Made by a program: the position numbers and the translations under genes. Below, in pieces: positions 13,131 to 34,666 of a DNA stretch of 64,000 bases. How positions within the stretch are numbered: the stretch's first letter is position 1; every line of letters begins with the position of its first letter. The notes beneath the pieces are model-generated. The model saw only the letters and a list, made by a program, of their open reading frames with translations. It searched no databases and had not been told where the DNA came from. Origin of the DNA: an uncultured Flavobacteriales bacterium (GTDB lineage: Bacteria; Bacteroidota; Bacteroidia; Flavobacteriales; Flavobacteriaceae); contig CAXBJF010000011.1 of the NCBI GenBank assembly GCA_963976005.1, positions 11,276 to 75,275 on the forward strand, written 5' to 3'.

Positions 13131-13144
13131 AGACTTTTTTATCT
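13131..13144. promoter_or_regulatory. Candidate Rrf2 operator, copy 1 (rrf2/nos divergent region)
   Basis: AGACT-TTTT-TATCT; matches three other copies. Confidence 0.55.
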
Positions 13145-13149
13145 TAAAT

Positions 13150-13193
13150 ATGATTTTTATCATGTTTTATCATTTTTTTAGCCATTATTTTTG
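13150..13193 (+). promoter_or_regulatory. nos operon promoter: FNR-like box plus Bacteroidota -7 element
   Basis: ATGAT-TTTT-ATCAT (13150-63), 22 nt, TATTTTTG (13186-93). Confidence 0.7.
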
Positions 13194-13221
13194 TACCAAA
13201 TAAACATTAATATATTTTAAC

Positions 13222-13725
13222 ATGAATTCAAGATTAAAATTTTTTACCGTTTTAATTGCTGCTATACTAATGAGTTGTGGTGGTAAAGAAGAAAAAAAGA
13301 AAGAAGGTTTTTCATATGAAAAAAAGGCTTCAACTGAAACAACAACTGTTGCCCCAACAGCTAAGGTTCCGGCATCCCAACAAATTACTTTGTCAGATAA
13401 AGGTATTGGACCAATTACCTCTATTGAATTACCCGCAGAAATTGATCAAGCTATGGTTGCCCATGGTTCAGAAATATATACAAAAATGTGTACTGCTTGC
13501 CACAGACCGGACAAAAAATTTATTGGGCCTGCACCCAAAGGCATCATGGAACGCAGATCTCCAGAATGGATCATGAACATGATTTTGAATCCGGAGGAAA
13601 TGATTCAAAAAGACCCTTTGGCCAAAGCGTTATTGGCTGAATTTAATGGCGCTCCCATGGCCAATCAAAACCTTACCCAAGAGGAGGCCAGGGCTGTATT
13701 GGAATACTTTAGAACACTAAAATAA
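13222..13725 (+). CDS. Monoheme cytochrome c lipoprotein (nos-associated)
   Basis: Lipobox LMSC; CTACH; distal Met in 'APMANQ'. Confidence 0.9.
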   Translation: MNSRLKFFTVLIAAILMSCGGKEEKKKEGFSYEKKASTETTTVAPTAKVPASQQITLSDKGIGPITSIELPAEIDQAMVAHGSEIYTKMCTACHRPDKKFIGPAPKGIMERRSPEWIMNMILNPEEMIQKDPLAKALLAEFNGAPMANQNLTQEEARAVLEYFRTLK

Positions 13726-13731
13726 CAATAT

Positions 13732-14301
13732 ATGAAAACAATCAAACATCTATTTTTTGTTTTTGCACTTTTAGCCCTGGTCGGTTCCTGCAAAAACGAA
13801 AACAAGGAAGCCTCAACAAACCCAACAGGAACTACTGAAAATGCATCCACCGATAAAACCGGTCAAGCATTTATTGAAGGCGACGTGGCCAAACCAAACG
13901 TTTTGCAAATTGCCATTGGATCGCCAGATCATACCACCTTGGTGGCTGCGGTACAAGCTGCCGGATTGGAAAACTCTTTGGTAAATGCAGGGCCATTAAT
14001 GGTATTTGCGCCTACAAATGAAGCTTTTGCTGCGCTTCCTGAAGGTACCGTGGAAAACTTATTAAAACCAGAAAACAAAGATCAATTGGCTTTAATATTG
14101 AAACACCATGTCACTCCTGGGAACTACAGCAAGGAATTTTTGAAAAAATTCAAAAAATTGGGTCAAGCAAGCAATGGCTATGTCACTGTAGAAGTGAAAG
14201 GTGACGATGTTTATGTAGGAGGGGCCAAAATTATTGCAAGCATTCCAGCCGGAAACGGAATTGTCCATGTTGTGGATAAAGTCATCCTACCAGAAAATTA
14301 A
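13732..14301 (+). CDS. Fasciclin (FAS1) domain lipoprotein
   Basis: Lipobox VGSC; 'VFAPTNEAF' and 'NGIVHVVDKVILP' FAS1 motifs. Confidence 0.9.
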   Translation: MKTIKHLFFVFALLALVGSCKNENKEASTNPTGTTENASTDKTGQAFIEGDVAKPNVLQIAIGSPDHTTLVAAVQAAGLENSLVNAGPLMVFAPTNEAFAALPEGTVENLLKPENKDQLALILKHHVTPGNYSKEFLKKFKKLGQASNGYVTVEVKGDDVYVGGAKIIASIPAGNGIVHVVDKVILPEN

Positions 14302-14326
14302 ACCATAAAAATTAACACTTATAACA

Positions 14327-16291
14327 ATGAAAAATAGATTTAAAATAACGCTCGGATTTTTGATAATGGCGACTGCATTTACCAGTTGCAATAACAAATC
14401 ATCCGATTCTAAAGGAGCATTGGCATCCAGTGCTGCTGAACAAGTATATGTTGCACCTGGGCAGCATGATGAATTTTACGCTTTTTTATCAGGGGGATTT
14501 AGCGGACAATTATCTGTCTATGGCTTACCTTCCGGTAGATTGTTTAAGGTCATTCCAGTGTTTTCACAAGATGCTGAAAAAGCCTATGGTTACAATGAAG
14601 AGACCAAGCCTATGTTAATGACTTCCTTTGGGGAAATTCCTTGGGGAGATGCCCACCACCCCGATATTTCACAAACCAATGGGATATTGGATGGCCGTTG
14701 GGTTTTTATAAACGAAAACAATACACCACGTATTGCTAGAATCGATCTTACTACTTTTGAAACCACTGAGATAATAGAAATTCCAAACTCTGCTGGTAAC
14801 CACAGTTCTTCTTATGTTACAGACAACACAGAATATGTAATTGCTGGAACACGTTTTAGCGTACCTGTACCACAACGAGATATGCCAATCAAGGACTATA
14901 AGGGCAATTTTAAAGGCGCTTTGTCCTTTCTTAAAGTAGATCCTGATAGTGGACAAATGGACTTATCGTTTCAGATATTAATGCCAGGGTTTGATTATGA
15001 CAAAGCCCATCCGGGACGGGGAAAATCACATGGCTGGTTTTTCTATACAACCTATAACACCGAAGAGGCCAATACGTTGTTGGAAGTGAATGCCTCGCAA
15101 AATGACAAGGATTTTATCGCAGCTGTTAACTGGAAAAAAGCAGAAGAGTATATCAAAGAAGGTAAATTTAAAACCATGCCCGCTAAATATGCACACAATA
15201 TGTATAATGATGAAACCCATTCTGCTTCAACAACCTGGGGAACTTCTGTAAAAGTGTTGGATCCTGCCGAACTTCCTGGGCTGGTTTATTTTTTACCAAC
15301 CCCTAAATCACCTCATGGTTGTGACGTTGATCCTACTGGCGAATATATTGTTGGTAGTGGTAAATTAGCAGCTAGTCTAACTGTGCATTCTTTTACAAAA
15401 ATGATTGATGCCATTGAAAACAAGAAGTTTGCTGGTGAAGCTTACGGTATTCCAATTCTTAACTTTGACGACGTATTGGCTGGAACTGTTGAGCAACCAG
15501 GGTTAGGCCCTTTACATACCGAATTTGACAATAAAGGAAATGCCTATTCAACATTTTTCATTTCTTCTGAAATTGTAAAATGGAAACTGGGAACTTGGGA
15601 AGTATTGGATAGACAACCTGCATTTTATTCTCCTGGACATTTAATGATTCCTGGAGGTAACTCTCAACAACCCTTTGGTAAGTATTTGCTTTCCATGAAT
15701 AAAATAACAAAAGACCGTTATTTGCCAACAGGACCGGAAGTAAGCCAATCCGCTCAATTATTTGATATTTCTGGAGACAAGATGAAACTGCTATTGGATT
15801 TCCCAACAGTTGGAGAACCTCACTATGCGGCCGGAATCCCTGCTAATCTAGTGGCTCCAAAGTCCAAGAAAATTTTCAAATTGGAAGAAAATAAGCATCC
15901 TTTTGCAACTCTCAACGATGCAGATGCCAAAGTAGTTAGAGATGGAAATAATGTACATGTTTATATTACGACCATTAGAAGCCATTTTAATCCTGATAAT
16001 ATTGAAGGCGTTAAAGTAGGCGATAAAGTATTTTTCCATGTCACCAATATGGAACAAGATTACGATGTGCCCCATGGAATGAGCATGATAGGTGCAAACA
16101 CATCAGAAGTACTTGTTATGCCAGGACAGACCGAAACTTTTGTTTGGGAGCCCAAACAAGTTGGTGTATGGCCATTTTATTGTACCGATTTCTGTTCGGC
16201 ACTGCATCAAGAAATGCAAGGCTATGTTCGTGTATCAGCTGCAAACGCCAATACCCCTTTAAAGTGGTCTTTGGGTGAAGATATAGAATAG
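14327..16291 (+). CDS. nosZ: Sec-dependent (clade II) nitrous oxide reductase
   Basis: CuZ His motifs DAHHP, GNHSS, SPHG, GPLHT and EPHY; CuA 'HG...CTDFCSALHQEM'; lipobox FTSC; no Tat RR motif. Confidence 0.97.
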   Translation: MKNRFKITLGFLIMATAFTSCNNKSSDSKGALASSAAEQVYVAPGQHDEFYAFLSGGFSGQLSVYGLPSGRLFKVIPVFSQDAEKAYGYNEETKPMLMTSFGEIPWGDAHHPDISQTNGILDGRWVFINENNTPRIARIDLTTFETTEIIEIPNSAGNHSSSYVTDNTEYVIAGTRFSVPVPQRDMPIKDYKGNFKGALSFLKVDPDSGQMDLSFQILMPGFDYDKAHPGRGKSHGWFFYTTYNTEEANTLLEVNASQNDKDFIAAVNWKKAEEYIKEGKFKTMPAKYAHNMYNDETHSASTTWGTSVKVLDPAELPGLVYFLPTPKSPHGCDVDPTGEYIVGSGKLAASLTVHSFTKMIDAIENKKFAGEAYGIPILNFDDVLAGTVEQPGLGPLHTEFDNKGNAYSTFFISSEIVKWKLGTWEVLDRQPAFYSPGHLMIPGGNSQQPFGKYLLSMNKITKDRYLPTGPEVSQSAQLFDISGDKMKLLLDFPTVGEPHYAAGIPANLVAPKSKKIFKLEENKHPFATLNDADAKVVRDGNNVHVYITTIRSHFNPDNIEGVKVGDKVFFHVTNMEQDYDVPHGMSMIGANTSEVLVMPGQTETFVWEPKQVGVWPFYCTDFCSALHQEMQGYVRVSAANANTPLKWSLGEDIE

Positions 16292-16296
16292 TAAAT

Positions 16297-16364
16297 TAGG
16301 AAAATTTTGTTTTAGTGTTTATTTTCCTATAAAGGCGAGAGTTGAGTTTTTCGCTCTCGCCTTT
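16297..16364 (+). terminator. Tandem hairpins between nosZ and nosB
   Basis: TAGGAAAAT..ATTTTCCTA (9 bp), then AAAGGCGAGAG..CTCTCGCCTTT (11 bp). Confidence 0.65.
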
Positions 16365-16402
16365 CCTTTTAAAATACTAATATTAATTTTAATTGTTTTC
16401 AG

Positions 16403-17002
16403 ATGAAAAAGTCAAATGTTATCATGCTTATTGCCGCTTTATTGCCACTTGGATTATTCTTTTTTCCTCTTTGGAAAATAACGCTTGAAGCTCCTCAATA
16501 TCCAACGCCATTAGGTATGTATATTTTTATTAATGATTTTTCAGATGTAAACCCCAATGATATCAAGAACATCAACCTGATGAACCATTATGTGGGGATG
16601 AAATACATTCCTGAGGCAATTCCGGAATTCAAGATTTTTCCATTGGGAATCATCATTACTACTATTATCGGGTTAATTATCGCATTTAAAGGCAATTACA
16701 AATGGTTTTTGGCCTGGTTTATTTTAATGATTGTTTTAAGTGCTGCGGGACTATATGATTTTTATCTGTGGGAACATCATTACGGAAATGATTTGGATCC
16801 CAAAGCGATCATAAAATTTACGAATCCAGATGGTACGGTCATGGGTTTTCAACCACCATTATTTGGTTCAAAAGATATTCTTAACTTTAAAGCACATTCT
16901 TATCCAAGATTAGGCGCGTACTTTTTAGGATTAGGCATTGCCACCTCATTATTGGCCTATTTTGTTGGAAAGAAAAGTCATAAAAAAAAGGTTGCTTTGT
17001 AA
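16403..17002 (+). CDS. nosB: NosB-type membrane protein of clade II nos clusters
   Basis: 'W...LEAPQYP..L', 'INLMNHYVGM' and 'FQPPLFG.K' motifs; 4 TM; directly after nosZ. Confidence 0.8.
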   Translation: MKKSNVIMLIAALLPLGLFFFPLWKITLEAPQYPTPLGMYIFINDFSDVNPNDIKNINLMNHYVGMKYIPEAIPEFKIFPLGIIITTIIGLIIAFKGNYKWFLAWFILMIVLSAAGLYDFYLWEHHYGNDLDPKAIIKFTNPDGTVMGFQPPLFGSKDILNFKAHSYPRLGAYFLGLGIATSLLAYFVGKKSHKKKVAL

Positions 17003-17024
17003 AAAATAGGACTCAAAAACGAGT

Positions 17025-17462
17025 ATGAAAACATTAAAACACTTTGCCATAATAGCATTGCTGGTATTACTATGCAGTTGCAATGCATCACCACAAGCCA
17101 TTAACTATGGTGCTGACGGGTGTCAATTTTGCAAAATGACCATAGTAGATAAGGTTCATGCTGCAGAAATAGTTACTAAAAAAGGAAAGGTTTATAAGTT
17201 TGATGCTACAGAGTGTATGATTAATTTCTTAAAAGGTTTTGATGTTACAGAAATTAAACTCTATTTAACAAATCATTACACGGAACCTGAAACCTTAATT
17301 GATGCTAATCAAGCTACTTTTTTAATTAGTGAAAATATCCCAAGCCCAATGGGTGCTTATTTAACGGCATTTAAAAACAAAAAGGTTGCAGAGGAAATTC
17401 AAGCTAAACAAGGTGGAGCATTATATACTTGGAGCGAACTTTTAATGCATCAAAAAAAATAA
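17025..17462 (+). CDS. nosL: NosL copper chaperone lipoprotein
   Basis: Lipobox; 'CQFCKM', 'FDATEC' and 'SPMG' motifs. Confidence 0.92.
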   Translation: MKTLKHFAIIALLVLLCSCNASPQAINYGADGCQFCKMTIVDKVHAAEIVTKKGKVYKFDATECMINFLKGFDVTEIKLYLTNHYTEPETLIDANQATFLISENIPSPMGAYLTAFKNKKVAEEIQAKQGGALYTWSELLMHQKK

Positions 17463-17538
17463 ATAACATCATCTATTTATTAAATTCAACCAATAAAAAA
17501 ATCAATCCTTATTTTTGGAGTAAATCTAACGTATTGAA

Positions 17539-18783
17539 ATGTGCCGTTTATTGAAACATAGCGTCTTAATTATTTCAGCTTTAATAAGTTGTTCTGTATT
17601 TTCGCAAACCATTAATGTTTGTGAAACATGTACAATTTCAACCTTAAAAGAAGCTATTGCAGCCGCTAAAGATTTTGATACCATTGTTATAAAAAAAGGC
17701 ACTTATAAAGAACATGATATTTTAGTTGATAAACCATTAACCATTTTAGGCGAAAATTACCCTGTTATTGATGGTGAGTTAAAAGGTGAAATTATTACTA
17801 TAGTTTCAGATAATGTAACTATTGATGGGCTGCACATCATTAATGTTGGCACCAGTTATACTTCTGATTATGCTGCCATTAGGGTTAGAAGAAGTAAAAA
17901 TTTCGTCATTAAAAATCTGGTGCTAGAGAAATTATTCTTTGGTATTTATATAGAAAAATCCAGTTACGGAAAAGTTTTTCATAACAAAATAATTGGTGAT
18001 GCAGTGCAAGAATACAATTCCGGGAACGGTATCCAATTATGGTACAGCAACCATATTCAAATTGAGCAAAATATTGTTGAACATGTAAGAGATGGCATCT
18101 ATTTGGAATTTTCTGATGATTGCCTAATAAAGAATAATGTGAGCCAACAAAATCTTCGATATGGTTTACATTTTATGTTTTCCAATAACGACATTTATCA
18201 AAATAATACCTTTGAAAATAACGGTGCCGGTGTTGCTGTTATGTTTTCAAAAAAAATTAAAATGCTTCACAACACATTTAAAAAAAATTGGGGAACAGCC
18301 TCGTATGGCATGCTCTTAAAAGAAATCAATGATGCTGAAATTATAGGCAATACGTTTGAAGAAAACACCATAGGCATCAATATTGAAGGTTCCAACAGAA
18401 TTACGTATAAAAACAACAGTTTCATCAATAACGGATGGGCCATTAAAGTAAGAGGAGCCTGTTATACTAACCACTTTTTAGAAAATAATTTTTTATATAA
18501 TTCTTTTGATATTTCATATAATAGCAACATCAATGATAATGTGTTCAACAAAAATTACTGGAGTAATTATACCGGGTACGATTTAGATAAAAATGGCATA
18601 GGTGATGTACCGTACAGACCTGTGAAATTATTCTCGTACATTGTAAACAGAACTCCTGAAACCATCATTTTACTGCGTAGTTTATTCATTGATATTATAG
18701 ATTTTTCTGAAAAAGTATCTCCTGTTTTTACACCTGATAATCTGTTTGACAATCATCCTTTAATAAAAAAAATAATATGGTAA
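17539..18783 (+). CDS. nosD: NosD nitrous oxide reductase maturation protein
   Basis: Beta-helix repeats 'RDGIY', 'RYGLHFMFS'; 'NYWSNY.GYDL...GIGD.PY'. Confidence 0.95.
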   Translation: MCRLLKHSVLIISALISCSVFSQTINVCETCTISTLKEAIAAAKDFDTIVIKKGTYKEHDILVDKPLTILGENYPVIDGELKGEIITIVSDNVTIDGLHIINVGTSYTSDYAAIRVRRSKNFVIKNLVLEKLFFGIYIEKSSYGKVFHNKIIGDAVQEYNSGNGIQLWYSNHIQIEQNIVEHVRDGIYLEFSDDCLIKNNVSQQNLRYGLHFMFSNNDIYQNNTFENNGAGVAVMFSKKIKMLHNTFKKNWGTASYGMLLKEINDAEIIGNTFEENTIGINIEGSNRITYKNNSFINNGWAIKVRGACYTNHFLENNFLYNSFDISYNSNINDNVFNKNYWSNYTGYDLDKNGIGDVPYRPVKLFSYIVNRTPETIILLRSLFIDIIDFSEKVSPVFTPDNLFDNHPLIKKIIW

Positions 18784-19484
18784 GCATTCAAAATTTACAT
18801 AAAAAATTTGGAAAAAACGTAGTGCTTAGCGGCGTAAATCTTGATATTAAAGAAGGTGGCATTTTTGCAGTACTTGGGCCGAATGGGTCAGGCAAAACAA
18901 CCTTGATTAAATCTATATTAGGCATGGTTATTCCTAACGAAGGAGACATTTCTATTTTAGGAAAAAACATTAAAAAAAGTTCTGATTACCGCTATAAAAT
19001 TGATTATTTACCGCAAATAGCCAACTTTCCAAACAACCTTAAGGTTAAAGAACTCATCACCATGATTAAGGATTTAAGAGGAAAAAAAATCAATGATGAA
19101 GCTCTAATTAGTTTATTTAAATTAGAAGCTTTTTTAGATAAAAAACTTGGCAATCTTTCAGGAGGTACCAAGCAAAAAGTAAATATTGTGTTGGCCTTTA
19201 TGTTTGACAGCCCTTTGATTATTTTAGACGAACCTACATCTGGTTTGGATCCCATTTCATTGATTCGTTTAAAGGATTTGATTCAAACTGAAAAAGCGAA
19301 AGGAAAAACCATTTTGATCACCTCTCATATCATGAGTTTTGTTGAAGAGGTTTCTGATGAAATTGTTTTTCTTTTAGAAGGACAAATTTATTTTAAAGGC
19401 TCCATTAATGAACTTAAAACCAAGACGAACCAACCAGATTTTGAACGCGCTATTGCCTCTATACTAACAGATAACCATGCTTAA
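18777..19484 (+). CDS. nosF: ABC ATPase NosF
   Basis: Walker A GPNGSGKT, LSGG signature, Walker B ILDEP; nos context. Confidence 0.92.
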   Translation: MVSIQNLHKKFGKNVVLSGVNLDIKEGGIFAVLGPNGSGKTTLIKSILGMVIPNEGDISILGKNIKKSSDYRYKIDYLPQIANFPNNLKVKELITMIKDLRGKKINDEALISLFKLEAFLDKKLGNLSGGTKQKVNIVLAFMFDSPLIILDEPTSGLDPISLIRLKDLIQTEKAKGKTILITSHIMSFVEEVSDEIVFLLEGQIYFKGSINELKTKTNQPDFERAIASILTDNHA

Positions 19485-20259
19485 AATATTAAAATACAGT
19501 TTTTACGATTTAATGCGCAGCAGATGGAGTTACATTTACTTTGCGTTTTATTTACTGCTTGGTGTGGTATTATTGTTTTTAAACAATGATTTATCCAAAG
19601 CAGTCATCACGTTAATGAACGTTATTATTGTTTTAGTGCCTTTAATCGGCACCATTTTTGGCGTCATGTACTATTACAATTCCAAAGAATTTACAGAACT
19701 CTTGTTGGCACAGCCTTTAAAACGCTCTTCCATATTTTTAGGACAATATTTAGGAGTTGCCATATCGTTGTCCATGAGTTTAATTTTAGGTTTAGGTATC
19801 CCATTTATATTTTATGGCTTATTTAAAAGTAATGCGATTTGGGATTTTTCATTGCTACTAACAACCGGAACATTTCTTACCTTTATTTTTACTGCATTAG
19901 CATTCAATATTGCTTTATCCAATGAAAATAAAATTAAAGGCTTTGGTTATGCCATTTTGTTATGGTTGTTTTTAGCCATTATTTACGACGGTATTTTTTT
20001 AATGTCGTTAATCCTTTTTGAAGATTATCCTTTAGATAAATTATCACTGGTTGGCACTATGTTAAATCCTATAGACTTGTCAAGAACACTCATCTTACTT
20101 AAATTAGACATATCTGCTTTATTAGGTTATACCGGAGCCGTTTTTAAACAATTCTTCGGAACCAATTTTGGCCTAATTATTTCCTTCTTTATGTTAATCT
20201 TATGGGTGGTTTTTCCAGTTTTAAGGATTTCTTATAAATCAAAAAGAAAAGACTTTTGA
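19477..20259 (+). CDS. nosY: ABC permease NosY
   Basis: 6-TM protein with 'ELLLAQPLKR' and 'NPID'; overlaps the nosF end. Confidence 0.9.
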   Translation: MLKILKYSFYDLMRSRWSYIYFAFYLLLGVVLLFLNNDLSKAVITLMNVIIVLVPLIGTIFGVMYYYNSKEFTELLLAQPLKRSSIFLGQYLGVAISLSMSLILGLGIPFIFYGLFKSNAIWDFSLLLTTGTFLTFIFTALAFNIALSNENKIKGFGYAILLWLFLAIIYDGIFLMSLILFEDYPLDKLSLVGTMLNPIDLSRTLILLKLDISALLGYTGAVFKQFFGTNFGLIISFFMLILWVVFPVLRISYKSKRKDF

Positions 20260-20462: not shown

Positions 20463-20506
20463 CTGATAAAAGTCATATTTTAAAATAATCTTAACCATTA
20501 TTTTTG
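20463..20506 (+). promoter_or_regulatory. nirK operon promoter: FNR-like box plus -7 element
   Basis: CTGAT-AAAA-GTCAT (20463-76), 22 nt, TATTTTTG (20499-506); same geometry as the nos promoter. Confidence 0.7.
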
Positions 20507-20519
20507 GTTCCTATAAAAA

Positions 20520-20533
20520 GGACATAAATGTCT
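20520..20533. promoter_or_regulatory. Candidate Rrf2 operator, copy 2 (just downstream of the nirK -7 element)
   Basis: GGACA-TAAA-TGTCT within AAAGGACATAAATGTCTTTT. Confidence 0.6.
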
Positions 20534-20587
20534 TTTTTATAATTCAATACATAAATCAAACCATGAAGCTAACTAAAACAATAACAA

Positions 20588-22039: not shown

Positions 22040-22053
22040 TCAACGGAACTAAA

Positions 22054-22824
22054 ATGGGACTTATTTTAAGGTTGACAATTTGTATAATAATACTTAATGT
22101 AAGTTTTGCATTTTGTCAATCTAAAATGGTTTCTATTAAAGGTGGTTCATACATACCCCTTTATGGTAGAGATTCATTAAAAGTAACCATATCAGATTTT
22201 GAAATGGATGTGTATCCAGTAACAAACCAAGAGTTTTTAGAATTTGTTAAACAACATCCTACATGGCAACGTTCACAAATAAAAAAACTGTTTGCAGATA
22301 ATAGCTACTTAATTAATTGGAAATCGGATACAGAATTAAATGATTCCCAACTTTTAAAAGCACCTATAACAAATATATCTTGGTTTGTAGCCAAAGATTA
22401 CTGTGAATGTCAAGGTAAGCGTTTGCCAACTATTGATGAATGGGAATATGTAGCAATGGCAAACAAAACAGTAGCTGATGCCCGAAAACTAGAATCTTAT
22501 AACAAATTTATTTTAGGATGGTATGAAAAACCTAAAACATTTAATAATGAGATAGGGTCAACCTTCAAAAATTATTGGCATGTATATGATTTACATGGCT
22601 TGGTTTGGGAATGGACTTTAGATTTTAATTCCGTTTTATTGTCTGGAGAATCTAGGAAAGATGTAGATAAAGACACTGATTTATTCTGCGGAAGTGCTGC
22701 GATTGGGGCTACAGATTTAATGAATTATGCGGCATTTATGCGTTATGCCATTCGAGGAAGTTTAAAAGCAAAATATTCAATGAAAAACCTTGGTTTTAGA
22801 TGTGTTAAAGATATTATCAATTAA
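22054..22824 (+). CDS. FGE-sulfatase domain (NirV-like) protein
   Basis: 'PVT.QEF', 'KRLPTIDEWEY', 'DLHGLVWEW' and 'GFRC' motifs; directly after nirK. Confidence 0.85.
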   Translation: MGLILRLTICIIILNVSFAFCQSKMVSIKGGSYIPLYGRDSLKVTISDFEMDVYPVTNQEFLEFVKQHPTWQRSQIKKLFADNSYLINWKSDTELNDSQLLKAPITNISWFVAKDYCECQGKRLPTIDEWEYVAMANKTVADARKLESYNKFILGWYEKPKTFNNEIGSTFKNYWHVYDLHGLVWEWTLDFNSVLLSGESRKDVDKDTDLFCGSAAIGATDLMNYAAFMRYAIRGSLKAKYSMKNLGFRCVKDIIN

Positions 22825-22828
22825 AAAA

Positions 22829-25366: not shown

Positions 25367-25383
25367 AAATCCATCAAATAAAT

Positions 25384-25510: not shown

Positions 25511-25597
25511 TCCGATAGCTATCGGGATCGTGGCTAAAAAGTTTTAGAAGTTAAAGCGAAATGCACTAAGTTACATACCTACCTGCCACCAGGCAGG
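25511..25597. repeat. Short palindromic repeat modules in the norB-porin spacer
   Basis: CCGATAGCTATCGG (25512-25, same core as at 7788) and CCTACCTG-CCAC-CAGGCAGG (25578-97). Confidence 0.55.
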
Positions 25598-25631
25598 GTT
25601 TTAAATAAATTTGAGACCAATAAAAATATTA

Positions 25632-26903: not shown

Positions 26904-26936
26904 TTTATTATAAATACTGAAAGACAATTGTTTAAA

Positions 26937-27710
26937 ATGAAGGCACCATATTACCATGCTACTGATAAGGAAATAGATGTTTTTGAGCATGCCTATACCT
27001 GTAAAATACCATTTTTATTAAAGGGGCCTACGGGAACAGGAAAATCCCGTTTTATTGAGCATATGGCACATAAACTAAACACTAAATTAATCACCATTTC
27101 TTGTCATGAAGAAACCTCTTCAACAGATTTAATAGGACGGTTTATTATTAAAGGTGCTGAAACGGTTTGGTTGGATGGCCCATTGACAACAGCAGTTAAA
27201 AATGGGTATATATTGTATTTAGATGAGATAGCCGAAGCACGACCAGATGTTATCGTAGCCATCCATTCATTAACAGACCATAGACGTGAATTGTTTATAG
27301 ATAAGTTAGGTGAAACCATTAAAGCACATGAAAATTTTATGTTGGTTGCTTCATTTAACCCTGGATATCAACGCGGATTTAAGGAGTTAAAACCTTCAAC
27401 CAGACAACGATTTGTTGCCCTGTCATTTGCATATCCTGAACCAAAAATAGAAGCAGAAATATTAACTTCAGAAACAAAAATTGAACTTGATATCGCTAAA
27501 AAACTAGTAAACATTGCCACAAAAATCAGAAACTTAACCGAACTTGGGTTAACCGAAACCGTTTCAACCCGATTATTGGTAGATGCCGCTAAATTAATTC
27601 ATACAGGCTTACCTAAACGCCTTGCGGTACACGTTGCTGTTATTGAACCTTTAACAGATGATCTGGAAGTGATTCAGGCACTGAAGGATTTAAGCGATTT
27701 AATGATATGA
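26937..27710 (+). CDS. norQ: CbbQ/NirQ/NorQ AAA+ ATPase
   Basis: 'LKGPTGTGKSRF', 'DLIGR', 'LDEI.EAR', 'NPGYQ...LKPSTRQRF'. Confidence 0.93.
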   Translation: MKAPYYHATDKEIDVFEHAYTCKIPFLLKGPTGTGKSRFIEHMAHKLNTKLITISCHEETSSTDLIGRFIIKGAETVWLDGPLTTAVKNGYILYLDEIAEARPDVIVAIHSLTDHRRELFIDKLGETIKAHENFMLVASFNPGYQRGFKELKPSTRQRFVALSFAYPEPKIEAEILTSETKIELDIAKKLVNIATKIRNLTELGLTETVSTRLLVDAAKLIHTGLPKRLAVHVAVIEPLTDDLEVIQALKDLSDLMI

Positions 27711-27714
27711 AAAT

Positions 27715-27779
27715 CAGTTTCCAGTCTCAGTCACAGTTTTCAGTAATGCAAACTGCGACTGAGACTGCGACTGAAAACT
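27715..27779. repeat. Hexamer-periodic inverted repeat (family D) filling the norQ-norD gap
   Basis: CAGTCTCAGTCACAGTTT facing AAACTGCGACTGAGACTG (17/18 complementary), with extra CAGT/ACTG units. Confidence 0.7.
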
Positions 27780-27787
27780 AAAAAAAG

Positions 27788-29563
27788 ATGTTTGAATTCG
27801 AACCAGACGAATATATTTTTACAAAATTTGCCTTCTTTTTTAAAAAACGAAAAAGAATAAAAGAGGCGGCATTAGAACATGCAATTGATTTAGTTGATAT
27901 AAAACCAAGGCTTACTATTTTTGCACGTGCCATTACGGGTCAACCCATAGAAATTTTTGAAGCTGAACGTGAAGGAGGTTATAGAAACAACAACTTCTTT
28001 TTACCGGCAAAGTTTTACGATTTTGAAACTGAAGAAGAAAATTTATCCTTTTATTTATTCAGAATCTTATACTTGTCAGTTCAAAAAAATTTGAACCTTA
28101 ACTGGAATGATATTTTAGAACACAACACTGTTGAATCACAGCAAAAAGCACTGGAAACTTCACATCAGGTATTAGAATTATTGTTTTCTCAATTTCCAAT
28201 AACTGAGACATCCCATCAAAAATTCATTTCATTTTACCAAAACAAAACAACAGAAAAACAACCTGCAGACTTTTCATTTATATATGGCAAATGGATGAAA
28301 AATTCGCCAAATGACGATTCAGAAAAACAGCTAAAAAACTTTACCGATAAGGTTAAAGAAGCTAATAACGAACAACCAAAAACCATCATAAAATCAAAGG
28401 CTGTTGAAGAAATTATTTCGGTTCAAATAGACCAAAAACAAATGGAAGATGCCGTATTACAGCATCAGTTTGAAAAAGTTGAAACTGCCGAAGAATTTGG
28501 CGGGAATTTTAGAGATATGGATGGAGATGATGATTTAGAAGACCATTCCAATGCCTTAGATGAAGTAAATATGAAGTTTACGGTGCGTGTTGATGATACG
28601 GCACACTCGGTTTATCAAGCCGATTTTATTGAAAATACAACAGTTTCTGAAAGTGCCGAAAGCGAAAGCAACGGACACTTTATTCATTACGATGAATGGG
28701 ATTATACCAAACGCACTTACAAAGAAGATTTTTGTAAAGTCTATCCAAAAACACCGTTAAAAACAGACGTTTCTTATTATAAAAAAACACTCAACGAAAA
28801 TCGTTCAACACTAATTGGTTTGCGTAAAATGTTAACCACGGTTAACAATAAATACCAACAACAACGCAGGCAAACACAAGGAGAGGAATTTGATATTGAT
28901 GCCATAACCGATTTGTATATCGATGTAAAATCGGGTCATACCCCATCAGAAAAAATATATGTATCCAAACGGAAAAAAGAAAAAGATCTTTCGATTTTAT
29001 TACTGTTGGATATTAGTTTATCCAGTGATGGTTATGCTGCAGGAAACAGGGTCATTGATGTAGAAAAGCAAGTATCTATTTTATTTGGAGAAATTTTAAA
29101 TGAGTTTAATATCGATTTTTCCATTGATTGTTTTTACTCAAAAACCAGAAATCATTCTTCCTATTTGAGCCTCAAGGATTTTGATGATAACTGGGATACC
29201 GCCAAATATAGAATTGGTGCTATTGAACCTAGTGGATATACCCGAATTGGTGCCGCATTACGACATTCGGGTGCTTTGTTGGATAAGCGTGATACCAAGA
29301 ATAAATGGGTGGTTTTAATATCAGACGGCAAACCAAATGATTATGATAAGTACGAAGGCAAATACGGTATTAACGATGTAAAACAGGCATTACGCGAGTT
29401 GAACGAACGCCAAATAAATTCGTATGCCTTGGCCATTGAAGCACAGGCAAAATATTATTTACCCCAAATGTTCGGACAAAACCATTATCAAATTCTTACT
29501 ACACCCGTTGAGTTATTGCAATCGCTGGTTAAGCTGTACGAAAAAATCAAACATCAGTCATAA
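27788..29563 (+). CDS. norD: NorD VWA-domain activation protein
   Basis: 'YDEWDY', MIDAS 'DISLS', 'TRIGAALRH' and 'SDGKPND'; follows norQ. Confidence 0.92.
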   Translation: MFEFEPDEYIFTKFAFFFKKRKRIKEAALEHAIDLVDIKPRLTIFARAITGQPIEIFEAEREGGYRNNNFFLPAKFYDFETEEENLSFYLFRILYLSVQKNLNLNWNDILEHNTVESQQKALETSHQVLELLFSQFPITETSHQKFISFYQNKTTEKQPADFSFIYGKWMKNSPNDDSEKQLKNFTDKVKEANNEQPKTIIKSKAVEEIISVQIDQKQMEDAVLQHQFEKVETAEEFGGNFRDMDGDDDLEDHSNALDEVNMKFTVRVDDTAHSVYQADFIENTTVSESAESESNGHFIHYDEWDYTKRTYKEDFCKVYPKTPLKTDVSYYKKTLNENRSTLIGLRKMLTTVNNKYQQQRRQTQGEEFDIDAITDLYIDVKSGHTPSEKIYVSKRKKEKDLSILLLLDISLSSDGYAAGNRVIDVEKQVSILFGEILNEFNIDFSIDCFYSKTRNHSSYLSLKDFDDNWDTAKYRIGAIEPSGYTRIGAALRHSGALLDKRDTKNKWVVLISDGKPNDYDKYEGKYGINDVKQALRELNERQINSYALAIEAQAKYYLPQMFGQNHYQILTTPVELLQSLVKLYEKIKHQS

Positions 29564-29594
29564 ATTAAAAATTTTAAAATAAAAAAACATCACA

Positions 29595-30569
29595 ATGAAT
29601 TCATTTTTACCCACCGTTGAGCAATTACCACAAGGTCATCCAATAAAAGTTTATTACGAAGAAAGTGCCTTAATTCAAGACCTTATTTTAGAACTTAAAG
29701 ATTCAAATCCTGCAGAAGATTTTCAGAAATACTTCAACATTTTCAACCAAATAACCACCATTGAAAAACGTTTCAAACGAAAAGAAAATCAATTATTCCC
29801 GTATTTAGAAAAACATAATTGGCATGGGCCATCGCAAGGCATGTGGTCCTTCCACGATAATTTACGCGAACAAATAAGGCTGTTAAATGGTTACAATTCA
29901 GATAGAAACATTCCTAAAATTTCTGAAGATATCCCATATTTAGTCGATGGTATAACTAGATTATTAACTATTGAAGACATGCGTTTATTCCCGAATGCCA
30001 TAGAATTAATTTCTGAAGAAGAATGGAAAGAATTTTACACTGGCGACGAAGAAATTGGCTGGATGTTGTTAGAAAAACCCGCACCTTACCCTGCGGTAGA
30101 AGCGGCTTATGTACACCCAAGCGAGGATTTTACACAACGTGACTTATCTTTTTCCTTAGAAAACACATTTCATTACGATGAAGGCTATATGACACCCGAA
30201 CAGGTAAACCTTTTGTTGCGTTTTTTACCAATTGATATTACTTATGTGGATGAAAACGATAAAGTGATATTTTACAACCGTGGCGACGACCGGGTTTTTG
30301 CTCGAAGCAAAGGCATAATTGGTAGAGAAGTGCGCTTTTGCCATCCCCCAAAAAGTGTCGATATGGTTTTGCGTATTGTTGATGAATTTAGGGCAGGCAC
30401 TAAAGATGTGGCAGAGTTTTGGTTCAATTTTAAAGGCAGAATTATTCATGTTCGATACTTCGCCATTAGAGATCACAACAAACAATACAAAGGTGTTATA
30501 GAAATGTCTCAAGATATTACGGACATTCAAAAATTAGAAGGTGAAAAACGATTATTAGATTGGGATTAA
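29595..30569 (+). CDS. Hemerythrin-like plus PAS domain protein (DUF438/PAS_10 type)
   Basis: 'GHP', 'KRFKRKENQLFP', 'MWSFHD', 'EDMRLFP'; C-terminal PAS 'LPIDITYVDEND...RFCHPPKS'. Confidence 0.78.
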   Translation: MNSFLPTVEQLPQGHPIKVYYEESALIQDLILELKDSNPAEDFQKYFNIFNQITTIEKRFKRKENQLFPYLEKHNWHGPSQGMWSFHDNLREQIRLLNGYNSDRNIPKISEDIPYLVDGITRLLTIEDMRLFPNAIELISEEEWKEFYTGDEEIGWMLLEKPAPYPAVEAAYVHPSEDFTQRDLSFSLENTFHYDEGYMTPEQVNLLLRFLPIDITYVDENDKVIFYNRGDDRVFARSKGIIGREVRFCHPPKSVDMVLRIVDEFRAGTKDVAEFWFNFKGRIIHVRYFAIRDHNKQYKGVIEMSQDITDIQKLEGEKRLLDWD

Positions 30570-30572
30570 AAC

Positions 30573-31154
30573 ATGCAAACACAAGACATCAATTATAAAA
30601 ACATCTATTATCCGCCAGGAGGAATTCTTATCTGGATGATCATTTTTTTAGAGCTCATCACTTTTGGGGCAGCATTGATTGCCATGGTGTTTTATGGTAA
30701 ACAAGAAGTTGAAATATTCCATAATTCCAGACTTCAGTTAAATGCTGCTTTTGGTATGATAAACACCATGTTCCTATTAACCAGCGGCTATTTCATGGCT
30801 GTTTCAGTCGCAGAATTAAAGCGGAAAAATATTAAAAAATTCAAAACCCTCCTTCTTTTAACCATGCTTTTCGGGGTATTGTTCTTAGGGCTTAAAAGTT
30901 TTGAATATTCAGAAAAACTATCAGAAGGGCTAGACATAGGGTATAACACGTTTTTCACATTTTATTGGATGCTCACGCTGTTTCATGTTATTCATGTGCT
31001 TGTTGGTTTGGTCATTTTAACCTCGGTTTACTTCGGAATAAAAAAAGAAAACTCCAGCACAACCATTGAAGATGTTGAGGCCAGTGCAGCCTTTTGGCAC
31101 ATGTGTGATTTAATTTGGATATTACTTTTCCCGGTCATTTATTTACTTTTTTAA
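30573..31154 (+). CDS. norE: Cytochrome oxidase subunit III-like NorE
   Basis: 'FYWMLTLFHVIHV' and 'FWHMCDLIW' motifs; nor context. Confidence 0.85.
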   Translation: MQTQDINYKNIYYPPGGILIWMIIFLELITFGAALIAMVFYGKQEVEIFHNSRLQLNAAFGMINTMFLLTSGYFMAVSVAELKRKNIKKFKTLLLLTMLFGVLFLGLKSFEYSEKLSEGLDIGYNTFFTFYWMLTLFHVIHVLVGLVILTSVYFGIKKENSSTTIEDVEASAAFWHMCDLIWILLFPVIYLLF

Positions 31155-31587: not shown

Positions 31588-32049
31588 TCATTTCCAGAAC
31601 TCATCATCCAGTTTGTCCTTAAAAGGCTCTTGATAATGTATTTTTTCTATGTGAAGTAATTGATTGTCAGTTGCAACTTTTTGAATTTCAGGAAAAAGAA
31701 TCCGTTCTTCAAAACGAATATGTTTATCCAGCTCTTCTTCAATCTTACTTAAAACCAAACCAAGGTCCTGTTCTTTTTTAAAAAGTCGTATTAAACGCCG
31801 GTGGTCAGCTAGGGCTTTTTTAATAAGCTGATTATCATTTCCTAAAATATTAAAAATGTGCATTTCTTCCATTTCAAAATGAGGGATTAAATGTGTTTCA
31901 AAAAACCAATTCGCATAATTTTTTATACGTTCTGGCGACACATTTTTACTAAAACCAGTTCGTATTTTCCAAGAGAGCAATAATCCTTGATGATGATCCC
32001 TGCTTAAGGGCTGTAAAGCTTTATGGCGTTTTTGTGATTGATTTTTCAT
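31588..32049 (-). CDS. Hemerythrin domain protein
   Basis: 'DHHQGL', 'HFEMEE', 'DH' and 'HIRFEERILFP' di-iron motifs. Confidence 0.88.
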   Translation of the reverse strand: MKNQSQKRHKALQPLSRDHHQGLLLSWKIRTGFSKNVSPERIKNYANWFFETHLIPHFEMEEMHIFNILGNDNQLIKKALADHRRLIRLFKKEQDLGLVLSKIEEELDKHIRFEERILFPEIQKVATDNQLLHIEKIHYQEPFKDKLDDEFWK

Positions 32050-33232
32050 GATTGTAGTGTTTGATAGTATTAATTAATATAAGAACAATTCCTAATGGCA
32101 ACAGTACACTAAAAAGGAAAAGTAACATAAAATAATGTGGAAGTATTCCGCCTCCAAAATAAAATTTATATCCTTGAAAACCAAGTAAGATTTCAGTTAA
32201 TAAAAAACCTAAAACAAAGGTATAGATTCCAACATGCAATCCTTTAGAAGTAGATGCTAATTGATTTTTAAAAATAAATGAAAACAAAAACCCGGTAACA
32301 ACGCCCAACATGGAAAGGTGTATGAATCCAATCACAAAATTGCGGTGCTCAAAAACCACTTTTGAAAATGTTGGAATCAGCGAAAGTGACTGCAATACAT
32401 TTTTTAAGATAAAGCAAAAAATAGCAAAACTATATAAATAAACAATGAGCGTTGAGTTGTTTTTTAATATTATTGGAAATGCCGGCTTTATGAGTTTTAA
32501 AAATATAAACAAAGCGGCAAGTTGCAGCAAAATGCCTAATCCGTTAATAAATAACAAAAATTCACGAGGTACAAACCAATATATAGGTAATGAAAATGTA
32601 AGTATGGTTGCCCCTATTAAAAGTATAAAAAACAACCTGAATTGTTTAGAATCTTGAAGTTGTATTTGATGTAAAAACACCGCTAAAACCGCAATTAAAA
32701 ACCACCCATTAAACTGAAAATGCAAAAAGAACTGGATGGCTATTTGATAAAATGCAGATGTTTGCCCCAACATGGAAACTGCGGGCCCTAAACACCAAAC
32801 CCCTAATGTGGATATTACCATAAACAAAAGAGAAGTTCTCAATAAATAACGTGCTGGCAAGTTCTTAATTTTATGATGTTTCCAAATAAGATAAGCAAAA
32901 TAATAACTGCATAAAATATGCAATGTAGAAAACGAAATAGATGCCCATGCATACCCTTGAATAGGAAAACTAATCATCATCCCAATTACAGAAATTTCAG
33001 TAAGCCAAAACAATCTGTTAAATACTGGTTTTTTTTCTTCAATAAAATAATGAACAAAAAGGGTATATAACATTAAATACACCCACCCTAACATGGCTAC
33101 ATGTGAATGGGCATGGGTTAAAAAACGGTAATTAATTGGAACTGAATTTATAAATGAGTAGCGTAAAATTAAACCCATTAAGGCGGCCATTAAAAAATTA
33201 ACTAAACATACTATAACTAACTTTTTTTGCAC
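32021..33232 (-). CDS. About 12-TM His-rich membrane protein (NnrS-like / heme-copper-fold-like), GTG start
   Basis: TM His motifs 'HAHSH', 'LHFQFNGW' and 'FIHL'; lies between ric and a hemerythrin. Confidence 0.6.
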   Translation of the reverse strand: MQKKLVIVCLVNFLMAALMGLILRYSFINSVPINYRFLTHAHSHVAMLGWVYLMLYTLFVHYFIEEKKPVFNRLFWLTEISVIGMMISFPIQGYAWASISFSTLHILCSYYFAYLIWKHHKIKNLPARYLLRTSLLFMVISTLGVWCLGPAVSMLGQTSAFYQIAIQFFLHFQFNGWFLIAVLAVFLHQIQLQDSKQFRLFFILLIGATILTFSLPIYWFVPREFLLFINGLGILLQLAALFIFLKLIKPAFPIILKNNSTLIVYLYSFAIFCFILKNVLQSLSLIPTFSKVVFEHRNFVIGFIHLSMLGVVTGFLFSFIFKNQLASTSKGLHVGIYTFVLGFLLTEILLGFQGYKFYFGGGILPHYFMLLFLFSVLLPLGIVLILINTIKHYNHEKSITKTP

Positions 33233-33336: not shown

Positions 33337-34068
33337 TTAACCAAATTGTTGTTCTAATTTAATTGCTCCAGGAAATAAAATGTTATTTTCTAAATGTATG
33401 TGTAAATGTAAATCTTGTTCAAATTCCTGAAGCATTGAAAAGGCTACTTTATAAGTGTTGCAGCCATCTGCCGGCGGGTTATAGTTATTTGATGTTTCTG
33501 CAATTTGTCTGAAACGTTCACCTTCATTATCATGTTCTTGCATCATAGAAGCAATAGGGTTTTCTACGGTGCCAAACTGTGGTGATTGAATAACGCTATT
33601 TCCCAATTTTGCGCTCACCATTTTTTTAATAAACGGAAATAAAATCAATTCTTCTTTTTTCATATGTGAAGCGAGTTCACCGGCCGAAGCTGTAAAAAGT
33701 TCATTTATTTTAAATAATTCCGGATGGTTTCCTCCATGTACAGAACATAGTTTATCTAAAAACTGACGTATTACAGGTGTTTTTTCTGCTACGTATCTGT
33801 GGTGTTTTTTCTCAATATAATCTGCCAATAAATCTAAAGGCCATGTTTTATAATCAGTAGATTGACTCGTAGTTGAGTTTAAAACAGCCTGAAGCTCATC
33901 TAAAAGGGTATTTACTTCTATTCCTTTTTTATTGCAAACTTCTTCAACTGTTCTGTCTCCTTTACAGCAAAAATCGATGCCATGGTTACTGAATACTGCT
34001 GCAGTTCTGAAATCGTCTGCAACAAATTGCCCTATTTGTTTTTCTGAATTTTTATTTATTACTTCCAT
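33337..34068 (-). CDS. ric: Iron-sulfur cluster repair di-iron protein (Ric/YtfE/ScdA)
   Basis: 'GIDFCCKG', 'HHRY', 'HMKKEE.ILFP', 'EHD' and 'HIHLENNILFP'. Confidence 0.95.
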   Translation of the reverse strand: MEVINKNSEKQIGQFVADDFRTAAVFSNHGIDFCCKGDRTVEEVCNKKGIEVNTLLDELQAVLNSTTSQSTDYKTWPLDLLADYIEKKHHRYVAEKTPVIRQFLDKLCSVHGGNHPELFKINELFTASAGELASHMKKEELILFPFIKKMVSAKLGNSVIQSPQFGTVENPIASMMQEHDNEGERFRQIAETSNNYNPPADGCNTYKVAFSMLQEFEQDLHLHIHLENNILFPGAIKLEQQFG

Positions 34069-34071
34069 AAT

Positions 34072-34100
34072 CCTCTCCCAACCCTCTCCAAAGGAAAGGG
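34072..34100. repeat. Family B hairpin repeat directly upstream of the ric ATG
   Basis: CCTCTCCCAA-CCCTCTCC-AAA-GGAAAGGG; same architecture as 8814-8843. Confidence 0.65.
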
Positions 34101-34138
34101 CCTTTTTTGGGTTTTTATTAATTAAACAATTTTATTTC

Positions 34139-34152
34139 GGATAAATTTATCC
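34139..34152. promoter_or_regulatory. Candidate Rrf2 operator, copy 3 (ric promoter)
   Basis: Perfect palindrome GGATA-AATT-TATCC; contains a -7-like TAAATTTA. Confidence 0.7.
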
Positions 34153-34172
34153 TATTAATATTCAAATTTTTT

Positions 34173-34607
34173 TTACGCCTTTAAAAATGAAAAGCCTGAT
34201 TTTATATTTAGCGCTAATTCTTCCAGACTCGTATTTTCCAACATATACTTTAACTCATCCCTTACAATTTTAAATTTATCATGCACCGGACACGGATGAT
34301 TTTCATCACAGGTATGTAAACCCAAACCGCATCCGTTATAAATTTTATCGCCATCAATGGCATTTACTATTTGAGATAATTTAATTGATGCTAAACTATT
34401 TTTATTCAATTCAAAGCCCCCATGAGCACCTTTTATTGAATAAATTATGTCATGCCGTACTAAATCCTGTAATATTTTGGCCGTAAATGCTTCAGGTGAG
34501 TTTATTTCTTTAGCAATGGCTTTTGGACTTACACGCTTGTTTTCATATGAGTTTATGGCAATAAAAATTGCTGCTTTAATACCATACTCACACGCTTTTG
34601 AAAACAT
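34173..34607 (-). CDS. Rrf2 family transcriptional regulator (Fe-S, Cys3-His)
   Basis: 'MFSKACEYGIKA', 'KGAHGGF'; C-x6-C-x5-C-P-V-H. Confidence 0.92.
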   Translation of the reverse strand: MFSKACEYGIKAAIFIAINSYENKRVSPKAIAKEINSPEAFTAKILQDLVRHDIIYSIKGAHGGFELNKNSLASIKLSQIVNAIDGDKIYNGCGLGLHTCDENHPCPVHDKFKIVRDELKYMLENTSLEELALNIKSGFSFLKA

Positions 34608-34652
34608 ATTGTCATTAAATTTAATACAAATATATGAAGATATTTTTAATTA

Positions 34653-34666
34653 AGATAAGTTTATCC
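34653..34666. promoter_or_regulatory. Candidate Rrf2 operator, copy 4 (autoregulatory position)
   Basis: AGATA-AGTT-TATCC, 18 nt upstream of a minus-strand TATATTTG -7 element (34627-34). Confidence 0.65.

Follow-up and report, generated by a model that had tools for sequence, protein, structure and literature searches.

What controls denitrification in the Bacteroidota? Flavobacteriia and other members of the phylum carry a large share of the environmental clade II nosZ and nirK genes, and we know of almost nothing on how these genes are regulated there. The question is raised by a 64,000-nucleotide (nt) stretch of DNA from an uncultured Flavobacteriales bacterium (contig CAXBJF010000011.1; the whole stretch, 66% A+T, is called the window). 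It carries a nos cluster, nirK, nor genes and ric, together with two genes of the Rrf2 regulator family, rrf2-1 and rrf2-2, and four copies of a palindrome. An initial annotation proposed this palindrome, written RGAYW-N4-TRTCY, as the operator of a nitric oxide (NO)-sensing Rrf2 regulon of Flavobacteriaceae.

The analysis described here supports an NsrR-like regulon that appears to be run by a separate Rrf2 clade with its own operator, and that is apparently wider than Flavobacteriaceae. These Rrf2 proteins have, with good probability, the palindrome as their operator. With somewhat less assurance, NO is the likely signal, in preference to redox or iron-sulfur (Fe-S) status. Rrf2 genes beside clade II nos clusters were noted in a metagenomic study, which called their role unpredictable (PMC6264515). 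A literature search found no description of the motif or the regulon; most subscription journals and RegPrecise were outside this search, so an earlier description is possible.

A conserved palindrome beside the rrf2 genes

The four copies lie where the initial annotation had placed them and, by the sequence and the open reading frame (ORF) map, all are intergenic. Site 1 is between rrf2-1 and the nos cytochrome c gene (13222), site 2 between the end of nosY (20259) and nirK (20588), site 3 between rrf2-2 and ric, and site 4 between rrf2-2 and an upstream ORF of 117 amino acids (aa). The operators, with their scores in the matrix scan described below, and the two regulator genes are:

13126-13149, operator 1, 11.9 bits, core AGACTTTTTTATCT at 13131-13144
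20515-20538, operator 2, 16.8 bits, core GGACATAAATGTCT at 20520-20533, over the predicted nirK transcription start
34134-34157, operator 3, 25.8 bits, core GGATAAATTTATCC at 34139-34152, in the 104-nt rrf2-2/ric spacer
34648-34671, operator 4, 28.9 bits, core AGATAAGTTTATCC at 34653-34666, covering the -33 region of the rrf2-2 promoter
12665-13096, minus strand, rrf2-1, Rrf2-family regulator of 143 aa, TIGR00738 at 96.4 bits (cut-off 73.3), the nos-linked paralogue
34173-34607, minus strand, rrf2-2, Rrf2-family regulator of 144 aa, TIGR00738 at 84.7 bits (cut-off 73.3), the widespread paralogue

A 24-bp symmetrised weight matrix was trained on 61 sites upstream of rrf2-2 orthologues, all from other genomes. 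When the window was scanned with this matrix, exactly four positions reached 6 bits or more, and these were the same four sites. Under a first-order Markov null, 0.21 hits of at least 10 bits and 0.007 of at least 16 bits are expected per window; three of the window sites score at least 16 bits. The loose pattern RGAYWN4TRTCY matches at six places in the window (11 strand matches), where 2.8 are expected; in 100 shuffles the count never reached 11. The motif is therefore above background, as the initial annotation would have it. Site 1 by itself is borderline, with 0.11-0.21 hits of such strength expected per window; it was accepted because its position is conserved at orthologous loci. The extra loose-pattern matches at 6220 and 9340 were rejected as sites, with matrix scores of -8.0 and -14.6. 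The first of these, the palindrome AGATATTAGTATCT at 6220-6233, is intergenic (6109 to 6333), lies near a LuxR-type response-regulator gene (6839-7465) and is probably unrelated to the operator.

The full operator is a palindrome of 24-28 bp, (TT)AATTA-RGAYW-N4-WRTCY-TAATT(AA), in which AT-rich arms surround the core. The motif first proposed was thus a conserved cis-element tied to rrf2, with the correction that its core is symmetric, RGAYW-N4-WRTCY, and forms part of a longer palindrome. The operator consensus, GGATAAATTTGTCC, includes a perfect Bacteroidetes -7 motif TAnnTTTG (TAAATTTG), and the TTTG of the operator doubles as the -33 of rrf2-2. The same bases thus serve both the operator and the core promoter.

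Conservation was followed in 157 related loci, many of them from related genera: 79 with rrf2-2 orthologues and 78 metagenome loci with rrf2-1 orthologues. Rrf2-2 has 4836 homologues at E<=1e-10, and the identity is at least 80% across Flavobacteriaceae genera. The region upstream of rrf2-2 orthologues holds a perfect RGAYA-N4-TRTCY core in 61 of the 79, and one with at most one mismatch in 74 of 79, located 55-63 nt from the ATG. The extended consensus at this position is TTTAATTAGGATAAATTTGTCCTAATTAAA. More than 30 genera, in at least three orders, are represented among the orthologues with the site, and its distance is fixed. Operator-bearing orthologues are also present in assemblies labelled Sphingobacteriaceae, Flammeovirgaceae and Marivirga; the system is therefore wider than the Flavobacteriaceae to which it was initially assigned, although it is present there. 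When the rrf2-2 upstream regions were compared with the local AT-rich background, information was confined to a 28-bp operator block and the TAnnTTTG -7 box. Since the flanking DNA carries none, the conservation is a footprint and not the result of insufficient divergence.

Predicted target genes and promoter architecture

Regulon membership was counted as a site of at least 12 bits upstream of a gene in the 157 loci. Such sites precede rrf2-2 in 68 of 79 cases, ric in 56 of 66, nirK in 15 of 19, qNor/norB in 6 of 13 and norC in 2 of 4. The intergenic region shared by rrf2-1 and nos reaches 12 bits in 35 of 72 cases; the median is 11.9 bits and almost all have a weaker site. More than 20 other gene families (n=4-51 each) in these loci had no site, two had one each, and ORFs without a family assignment had a site in 17 of 836 cases. 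A scan of the rrf2-1 loci for more targets found none beyond the shared nos intergenic region. The targets that could be identified, ric, nirK, norCB, qNor, hmp and the nos region, all have to do with NO production, NO consumption or NO damage. Targets of the NsrR type had been claimed from the window alone (ric and nirK/nor); in other genomes the site is found at ric, nirK, nor/qNor, the nos region and hmp, which is again content of the NsrR type.

Individual sites are also kept in place. The nirK orthologue sites span about a dozen genera. A near-invariant AAATAGGATAAAATTATCCGAAAT occupies the rrf2-2/ric spacer of the ric orthologues (56/66). In the metagenome loci, orthologues of rrf2-1 point away from the nos cluster and have a conserved block, ATTTAAGAYAAAAAYATCTTTTTT, upstream, at the position of operator 1. 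The site precedes the nos cytochrome c gene by 76-87 nt in four loci (L007, L035, L051, L077) and by 84 nt in the window. Sites 2 and 1 are therefore validated by the orthologous nirK and nos-cytochrome c positions.

Further targets were found singly: a flavohaemoglobin (hmp) having globin, FAD and NAD domains, NO reductases of the quinol type, a haem-copper oxidase and a hemerythrin-PAS gene. A predicted membrane protein of 131-132 aa with a CNGKC motif and no Pfam family has an operator of 20-26 bits centred 20 nt from its ATG in five loci (L015 at 13565-13963, L038, L040, L044 and L046; Winogradskyella, Gelatiniphilus), which makes it a candidate new member of the NO regulon.

The promoter elements that accompany the operators in the window are:

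13120-13127, minus strand, -7-like box of the rrf2-1 promoter, TTATTTTG, read from the sequence, one mismatch to TAnnTTTG
13150-13163, FNR/CRP-like box ATGATTTTTATCAT, common to the divergent rrf2-1 and nos promoters, ~-41 from each
13186-13193, plus strand, -7 box TATTTTTG of the nos-cluster promoter
20464-20475, FNR/CRP-like box of the nirK promoter, TGATAAAAGTCA (also written cTGATAAAAGTCAt), its centre 33 nt upstream of that of the -7 box
20499-20506, plus strand, -7 box TATTTTTG of the nirK promoter
34627-34634, minus strand, -7 box TATATTTG of the rrf2-2 promoter, at a conserved 28-29 nt from the operator centre

Bacteroidetes promoters consist of -33 and -7 elements, with a usual spacing of about 19-21 nt from TTTG to TAnnTTTG. 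In the rrf2-2 promoter, 28-29 nt separate the operator centre from the -7 box centre downstream of it, and the operator TTTG is 20 nt before TAnnTTTG. This is the spacing expected of a -33 element, so a bound protein would occlude the -33 of the rrf2-2 promoter. At nirK, the conserved order is TGAY-N4-RTCA, 23-24 nt, TAnnTTTG, 8-13 nt, operator. The operator centre is 21-25 nt downstream of the -7 box centre, over the predicted transcription start, and in the window the palindrome begins 13 nt after the -7 box, exactly as first noted (20520). The rrf2-1 operator lies between -33 and -7 (~-22), with its centre 13-15 nt ahead of that of the -7 box. The operator positions thus fit a repressor at rrf2-2, nirK and rrf2-1, and the earlier view that the sites are repressor-compatible stands for these three. 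At nos, a perfect TAnnTTTG is 52 nt from the operator centre in at least 19 orthologous regions. Site 1 is placed to repress rrf2-1; direct repression of nos by it is doubtful, because it lies ~60 nt upstream of the nos start, beyond the activator-type box.

The ric promoter is a separate case. The operator centre is 22 nt from the ric ATG in most genomes and 78 nt in the window, where a GC-rich insertion of ~56 nt (34069-34125), lacking in most orthologous loci, separates operator 3 from the ATG. Unrelated insertions occur at the same rrf2-2/ric spot in L036, L037 and L059-L061. A 9-bp hairpin in this GC-rich leader was considered and rejected, its fold being not significant (z -1.3). No ric promoter could be defined in the window: a TTTG after the rrf2-2 stop is 13 nt from the -7-like TAAATTTA inside the operator, and no promoter was assigned because this gap is too short for the ~19-21 nt spacing. 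Operator 3 may overlap a weak -7-like TAAATTTA, or else it may obstruct a transcript that runs from rrf2-2 into ric.

A second palindrome, TGAY-N4-RTCA, was outside the motif of the initial annotation. It adjoins site 1 and precedes nirK. In the related loci it is found upstream of nirK in all 17 full-length regions, of rrf2-1 in 45 of 58 and of the nos cytochrome c gene in 42 of 56, compared with 5% both for rrf2-2 and for the upstream regions of other genes, and with none of 13 for qNor. At nirK in ~12 genera, its centre lies 33 nt upstream of that of the -7 box, at ~-41, the class II activator position. The box is not enriched window-wide (7 against 3.95 expected) and was counted as an element because it is conserved at orthologous nirK and nos promoters. 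The denitrification promoters thus appear to combine a CRP/FNR-type activator with an Rrf2 repressor, and the NO-detoxification genes ric, qNor and hmp have the Rrf2 site alone. The conserved box implies a Crp/Fnr-type activator of denitrification genes in these bacteria. None was found among the five regulator-sized window ORFs checked (195-233 aa), one of which is a LuxR-type response regulator. Six loci with distant rrf2-1-like genes (L136-L138, L145, L152, L155) have before these genes a third palindrome, GTAAC-N4-GTTAC, further upstream than the FNR-like box and the Rrf2 operator; the consensus published for HcpR2 in Bacteroides and Clostridia is identical to it.

The genes controlled by, or adjoining, these promoters in the window are:

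13222-20259, plus strand, nos cluster of clade II type (ORF map, Pfam matches, gene order)
20588-31154, plus strand, probable nirK-nor operon, judged by tight same-strand spacing
31588-32049, minus strand, hemerythrin-domain protein (Pfam match), overlapping the gene of the 403-aa membrane protein
32021-33232, minus strand, 403-aa multi-pass membrane protein after ric, no Pfam or NCBIfam match
33337-34068, minus strand, ric, RIC model TIGR03652 at 237.8 bits, downstream of operator 3
34675-35028, minus strand, 117-aa ORF ending ...REWQKVWFRNKYK, directly upstream of rrf2-2

The nos cluster runs in the order cytochrome c, fasciclin protein, Sec-type NosZ, a 199-aa membrane protein, NosL, NosD-like protein, NosF-like ABC ATPase and NosY-like permease; cytochrome c, fasciclin and NosL are family-model matches, and NosZ, NosD, NosF and NosY were named by reading of the translations and gene order. 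The nirK-nor genes encode a NirK-cytochrome c fusion (NirK by TIGR02376, 359.7 bits), FGE-like, SCO1/SenC, NorC, NorB, porin-like, NorQ, NorD, hemerythrin-PAS and NorE-like proteins, with SCO1 and hemerythrin/PAS backed by Pfam matches. The 403-aa membrane protein downstream of ric may have an NnrS-like function; a homologue, 28% identical and without a Pfam family, has its own operator in L078. The 117-aa ORF adjoins rrf2-2 upstream in many genera and has no Pfam family and no operator before it.

The nearest named relatives of both Rrf2 regulators are in Mariniflexile and Yeosuana, which makes an uncultured Flavobacteriaceae genome the most likely source. Among public sequencing runs, the window sequence was present in marine, aquatic and sediment metagenomes only, and only marine metagenome runs of 2018 contained 99-100% of its sampled words. 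One metatranscriptome contained 7% of these words, too little to yield transcription start sites.

The Rrf2 proteins and the competing explanations

Rrf2-1 and Rrf2-2 are 40% identical, and PF02082 is annotated on all Rrf2 homologues. An AlphaFold (AF2) model of Rrf2-2, with a predicted local distance difference test score (pLDDT) of 83.7, has the Rrf2 fold, a winged helix-turn-helix plus a dimerisation helix. The recognition helices are near-identical (PQAFTAKILQ and PQAYIAKLLQ; joint pattern PQA[FY][TI]AK[IL]LQ), and therefore both paralogues probably read the same core. They differ in the wing: the position of Arg59/60 of IscR and NsrR is Lys in Rrf2-2 and Arg in Rrf2-1. In known complexes of Rrf2 proteins with operators of 23 bp, the AT-rich ends are read by wing arginines (PMC9338935), and the length and symmetric AT-rich arms of the present palindrome agree with this. 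The operators differ too, those beside rrf2-1 being AGAYA...TATCT with a T-rich arm and those at ric, qNor and nirK GGAYA...TRTCC. The wing residue and the operator arms are suggestive of a partly divided specificity of the paralogues.

Both proteins carry C-x6-C-x5-C-P-x-H, and the pattern C-x6-C-x5-C-x2-H, reported at the outset for the two window proteins, is present in 240 of 240 homologues checked. C93, C100, C106, P105, P107 and H109 are invariant across both paralogue families (28 aligned sequences). The invariant His109 could be the fourth ligand of a cluster. The N-termini, MFSKACEYGIKA and MLSNSSKYAIKA, contain no Asp in either protein; residue 7 is Glu in Rrf2-2 and Lys in Rrf2-1.

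Which known Rrf2 proteins are closest bears on what is sensed. The NsrR equivalog NF008240 scored 36.1 and 24.6 bits against a cut-off of 182. The IscR equivalogs scored 62.3 and 51.4 bits (TIGR02010, cut-off 207.55) and 44.4 and 29 bits (NF008110, cut-off 275), and both proteins were also far below the cut-offs of the RirA, CymR and SUF-regulator equivalogs. A profile search of solved structures with both families returned RsrR first (E 7e-11), then IscR, CymR and NsrR, all remote; single-sequence comparison found CymR alone, weakly. Foldseek aligned the AF2 model to RsrR, CymR, IscR and NsrR with template modelling (TM) scores of 0.63-0.72, with 12-13% identity to the Streptomyces coelicolor NsrR (ScNsrR).

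These results give some room to a different account of the signal, that the Rrf2 proteins bind the motif as proposed and sense Fe-S status, iron, redox or oxygen in the manner of IscR, RirA or RsrR, the NO genes being a response to cluster damage. The Cys3-His ligand set is IscR-like, the IscR and SUF-regulator models outscore the NsrR model (51-62 against 24-36 bits), and the most conserved target, ric, repairs damaged iron centres. The content of the regulon, in which every identified target concerns NO, argues the other way, as does the result that no Fe-S assembly gene (isc/suf) stands beside a site in the window or in the 157 loci, which are fragments. On balance we regard this account as unlikely, though it survives better than the others.

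That a different regulator binds the palindrome is less likely still. Such a protein could be, for example, an NO sensor belonging to the CRP/FNR family (HcpR, NnrR or DNR kind), and the rrf2 genes would be members of the regulon and not its regulators. The 5-4-5 layout of RGAYW-N4-WRTCY is that of FNR and HcpR2 boxes, and the centre of the rrf2-2 site at ~-37 is only ~4-5 nt off a class II activator position. However, the nirK site downstream of the -7 box and the rrf2-1 site between -33 and -7 suit a repressor only, the symmetric conservation reaches 24-28 bp, as in Rrf2 operators, and a truly FNR-like box is already present separately at -41 of nirK and nos. The site also accompanies rrf2-2 in 74 of 79 genomes at fixed distance, and the five window ORFs checked include no Crp/Fnr protein. 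Finally, chance or composition, by which AT-rich intergenic DNA or palindrome-like -7 boxes (TAnnTTTG) would produce the four matches, might be suspected from the base composition of the window, the -7 motif within the operator consensus and the borderline score of site 1, and is refuted by the shuffles, the matrix scan and the Markov null, as well as by the symmetry of the G/C positions, by a nirK site that is additional to a separate -7 box, and by conservation of the sites, but not of the neighbouring bases, at orthologous promoters in dozens of genera.

A number of points count against an Rrf2 operator that responds to NO. First, the ligand set is more like that of IscR than that of NsrR, and RsrR, IscR and CymR stand nearer than NsrR among solved structures; the effector could therefore be redox or Fe-S status. 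Second, the 5-N4-5 core geometry equals that of CRP/FNR boxes, so another factor could bind the motif. Third, site 1 has only 11.9 bits and at ~-60 relative to the nos start is in no classical repressor position. Fourth, the training sites were picked with the core pattern of the initial annotation, which makes the core positions of the matrix partly circular, but not the locations of its hits. Fifth, the loci scanned are fragments of 2-16 kb, so that the regulon is seen in part, and suf or isc genes occur neither in them nor in the window.

The preferred reading, operators of an NO-responsive Rrf2 repressor, leads to the following mechanism. The motif and its conservation, the genes next to it, the promoter geometry and the unchanging ligand residues are observations; the binding protein, the repression, the roles of the two paralogues, the cluster and the effector are inferred. 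The four palindromes would be operators of a Bacteroidota-specific clade of Fe-S-type Rrf2 repressors, of which Rrf2-2 is the widespread and Rrf2-1 the nos-linked member. As a dimer, the protein would use the shared recognition helix for the GAY/RTC positions in the major groove, and its wings for the AT-rich arms. In the absence of signal, the holo-repressor would sit at its own promoter over the -33, at nirK(-nor) over the transcription start, and at the rrf2-1 promoter between -33 and -7. In the rrf2-2/ric spacer it would form a block inside the rrf2-2-ric transcript or lie over a ric promoter. The signal would be NO or nitrosative damage to a cluster with the ligands Cys93, Cys100, Cys106 and His109. 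It would free the DNA of the repressor, with induction of ric, qNor/norCB, nirK and, in other genomes, hmp. The nirK, nos/rrf2-1 and some norC promoters would also need a CRP/FNR-type activator at TGAY-N4-RTCA near -41; denitrification expression would therefore require an activating signal and derepression together.

A broader scenario is put forward tentatively: a Bacteroidota-wide Rrf2 clade may have independently taken the NsrR role, with a Cys3-His cluster and its own operator, and may have been duplicated in nos-carrying Flavobacteriaceae to give a feed-forward circuit. In this scenario, Rrf2-2, with its wing Lys, would be a general NO-stress repressor that acts on GGAYA...TRTCC at ric, qNor and nirK. 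Rrf2-1, with its wing Arg, would be a nos-linked repressor that acts on AGAYA...TATCT with T-rich arms and is itself driven by the FNR-like activator. Clade II nosZ organisms have no NosR, and such a circuit might time nitrous oxide (N2O) reduction relative to NO production in them.

The analysis supplies a specific operator, a delimited core regulon and a promoter model with two inputs, FNR-like activator plus Rrf2 repressor. It is a first testable model for the switching on of NO, nitrite and N2O reduction in abundant marine Bacteroidota, and, if true, allows NO-responsive genes to be predicted from sequence in Bacteroidota genomes and metagenomes.

Comparison with known systems

The second palindrome resembles FNR, DNR and NnrR boxes. 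TGAY-N4-RTCA equals the core of TTGAT-N4-ATCAA and is found at ~-41, like DNR and NnrR sites at nir, nor and nos; the outer base, however, is A or C (ATGAY/CTGAY), not T. The published consensus boxes are TTGAT-N4-ATCAA for FNR and GTAAC-N4-GTTAC for HcpR2 (PMC1274295).

Among the Rrf2 proteins, the redox-sensing RsrR of Streptomyces venezuelae is the closest solved relative by profile and Foldseek, and the first and third Cys of the present proteins align with the RsrR cluster cysteines. The cluster ligands of RsrR are two Cys together with Glu and His from the partner subunit. The identity is only ~20%, and the regulon is unrelated.

IscR, which regulates Fe-S cluster assembly, shares the Cys3-His ligand motif and a similar fold, and its model is the best equivalog after generic Rrf2. 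The ligand motif of E. coli IscR is C-x5-C-x5-C-x2-H, so the present proteins have one more residue between the first two Cys. The targets differ more widely: all those found here are NO-related, and no isc or suf gene is near any site in the loci examined.

NsrR, an NO-sensing Rrf2 repressor known from Proteobacteria, Bacillus and Streptomyces, appears closest in function. In Proteobacteria and Firmicutes its regulon consists of NO detoxification and denitrification genes (PMC1274295). The likeness includes the Rrf2 winged-helix fold, three conserved Cys in the C-terminal half, an autoregulatory site and action as a negative regulator, which is here predicted. The NsrR regulon comprises ric/ytfE/dnrN, hmp, norB and nirK, as well as nnrS-like genes; the sites described here are at ric, nirK, qNor/norCB, hmp and both rrf2 genes. 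The predicted repressor site downstream of an FNR-type site at nirK also has a parallel at the enterobacterial hcp promoter, where the NsrR site is downstream of an FNR-type site (PMC1274295). The differences are in the operator and apparently in the ligands. The operator here, AATTAGGATAAATTTGTCCTAATT, or RGAYW-N4-WRTCY with AATTA arms, is distinct, as first claimed, from the published NsrR consensus gATGyAT-N5-ATrCATc (PMC1274295). The three Cys are spaced x6/x5, and an invariant His comes two residues beyond the third. The fourth ligand of ScNsrR is described as Asp8 of the partner subunit (PMC5411485); no N-terminal Asp is seen in the present proteins, which occur as two paralogues. The system is also a natural case in which to ask how NO might be sensed by Rrf2 proteins whose ligand set is IscR-like.

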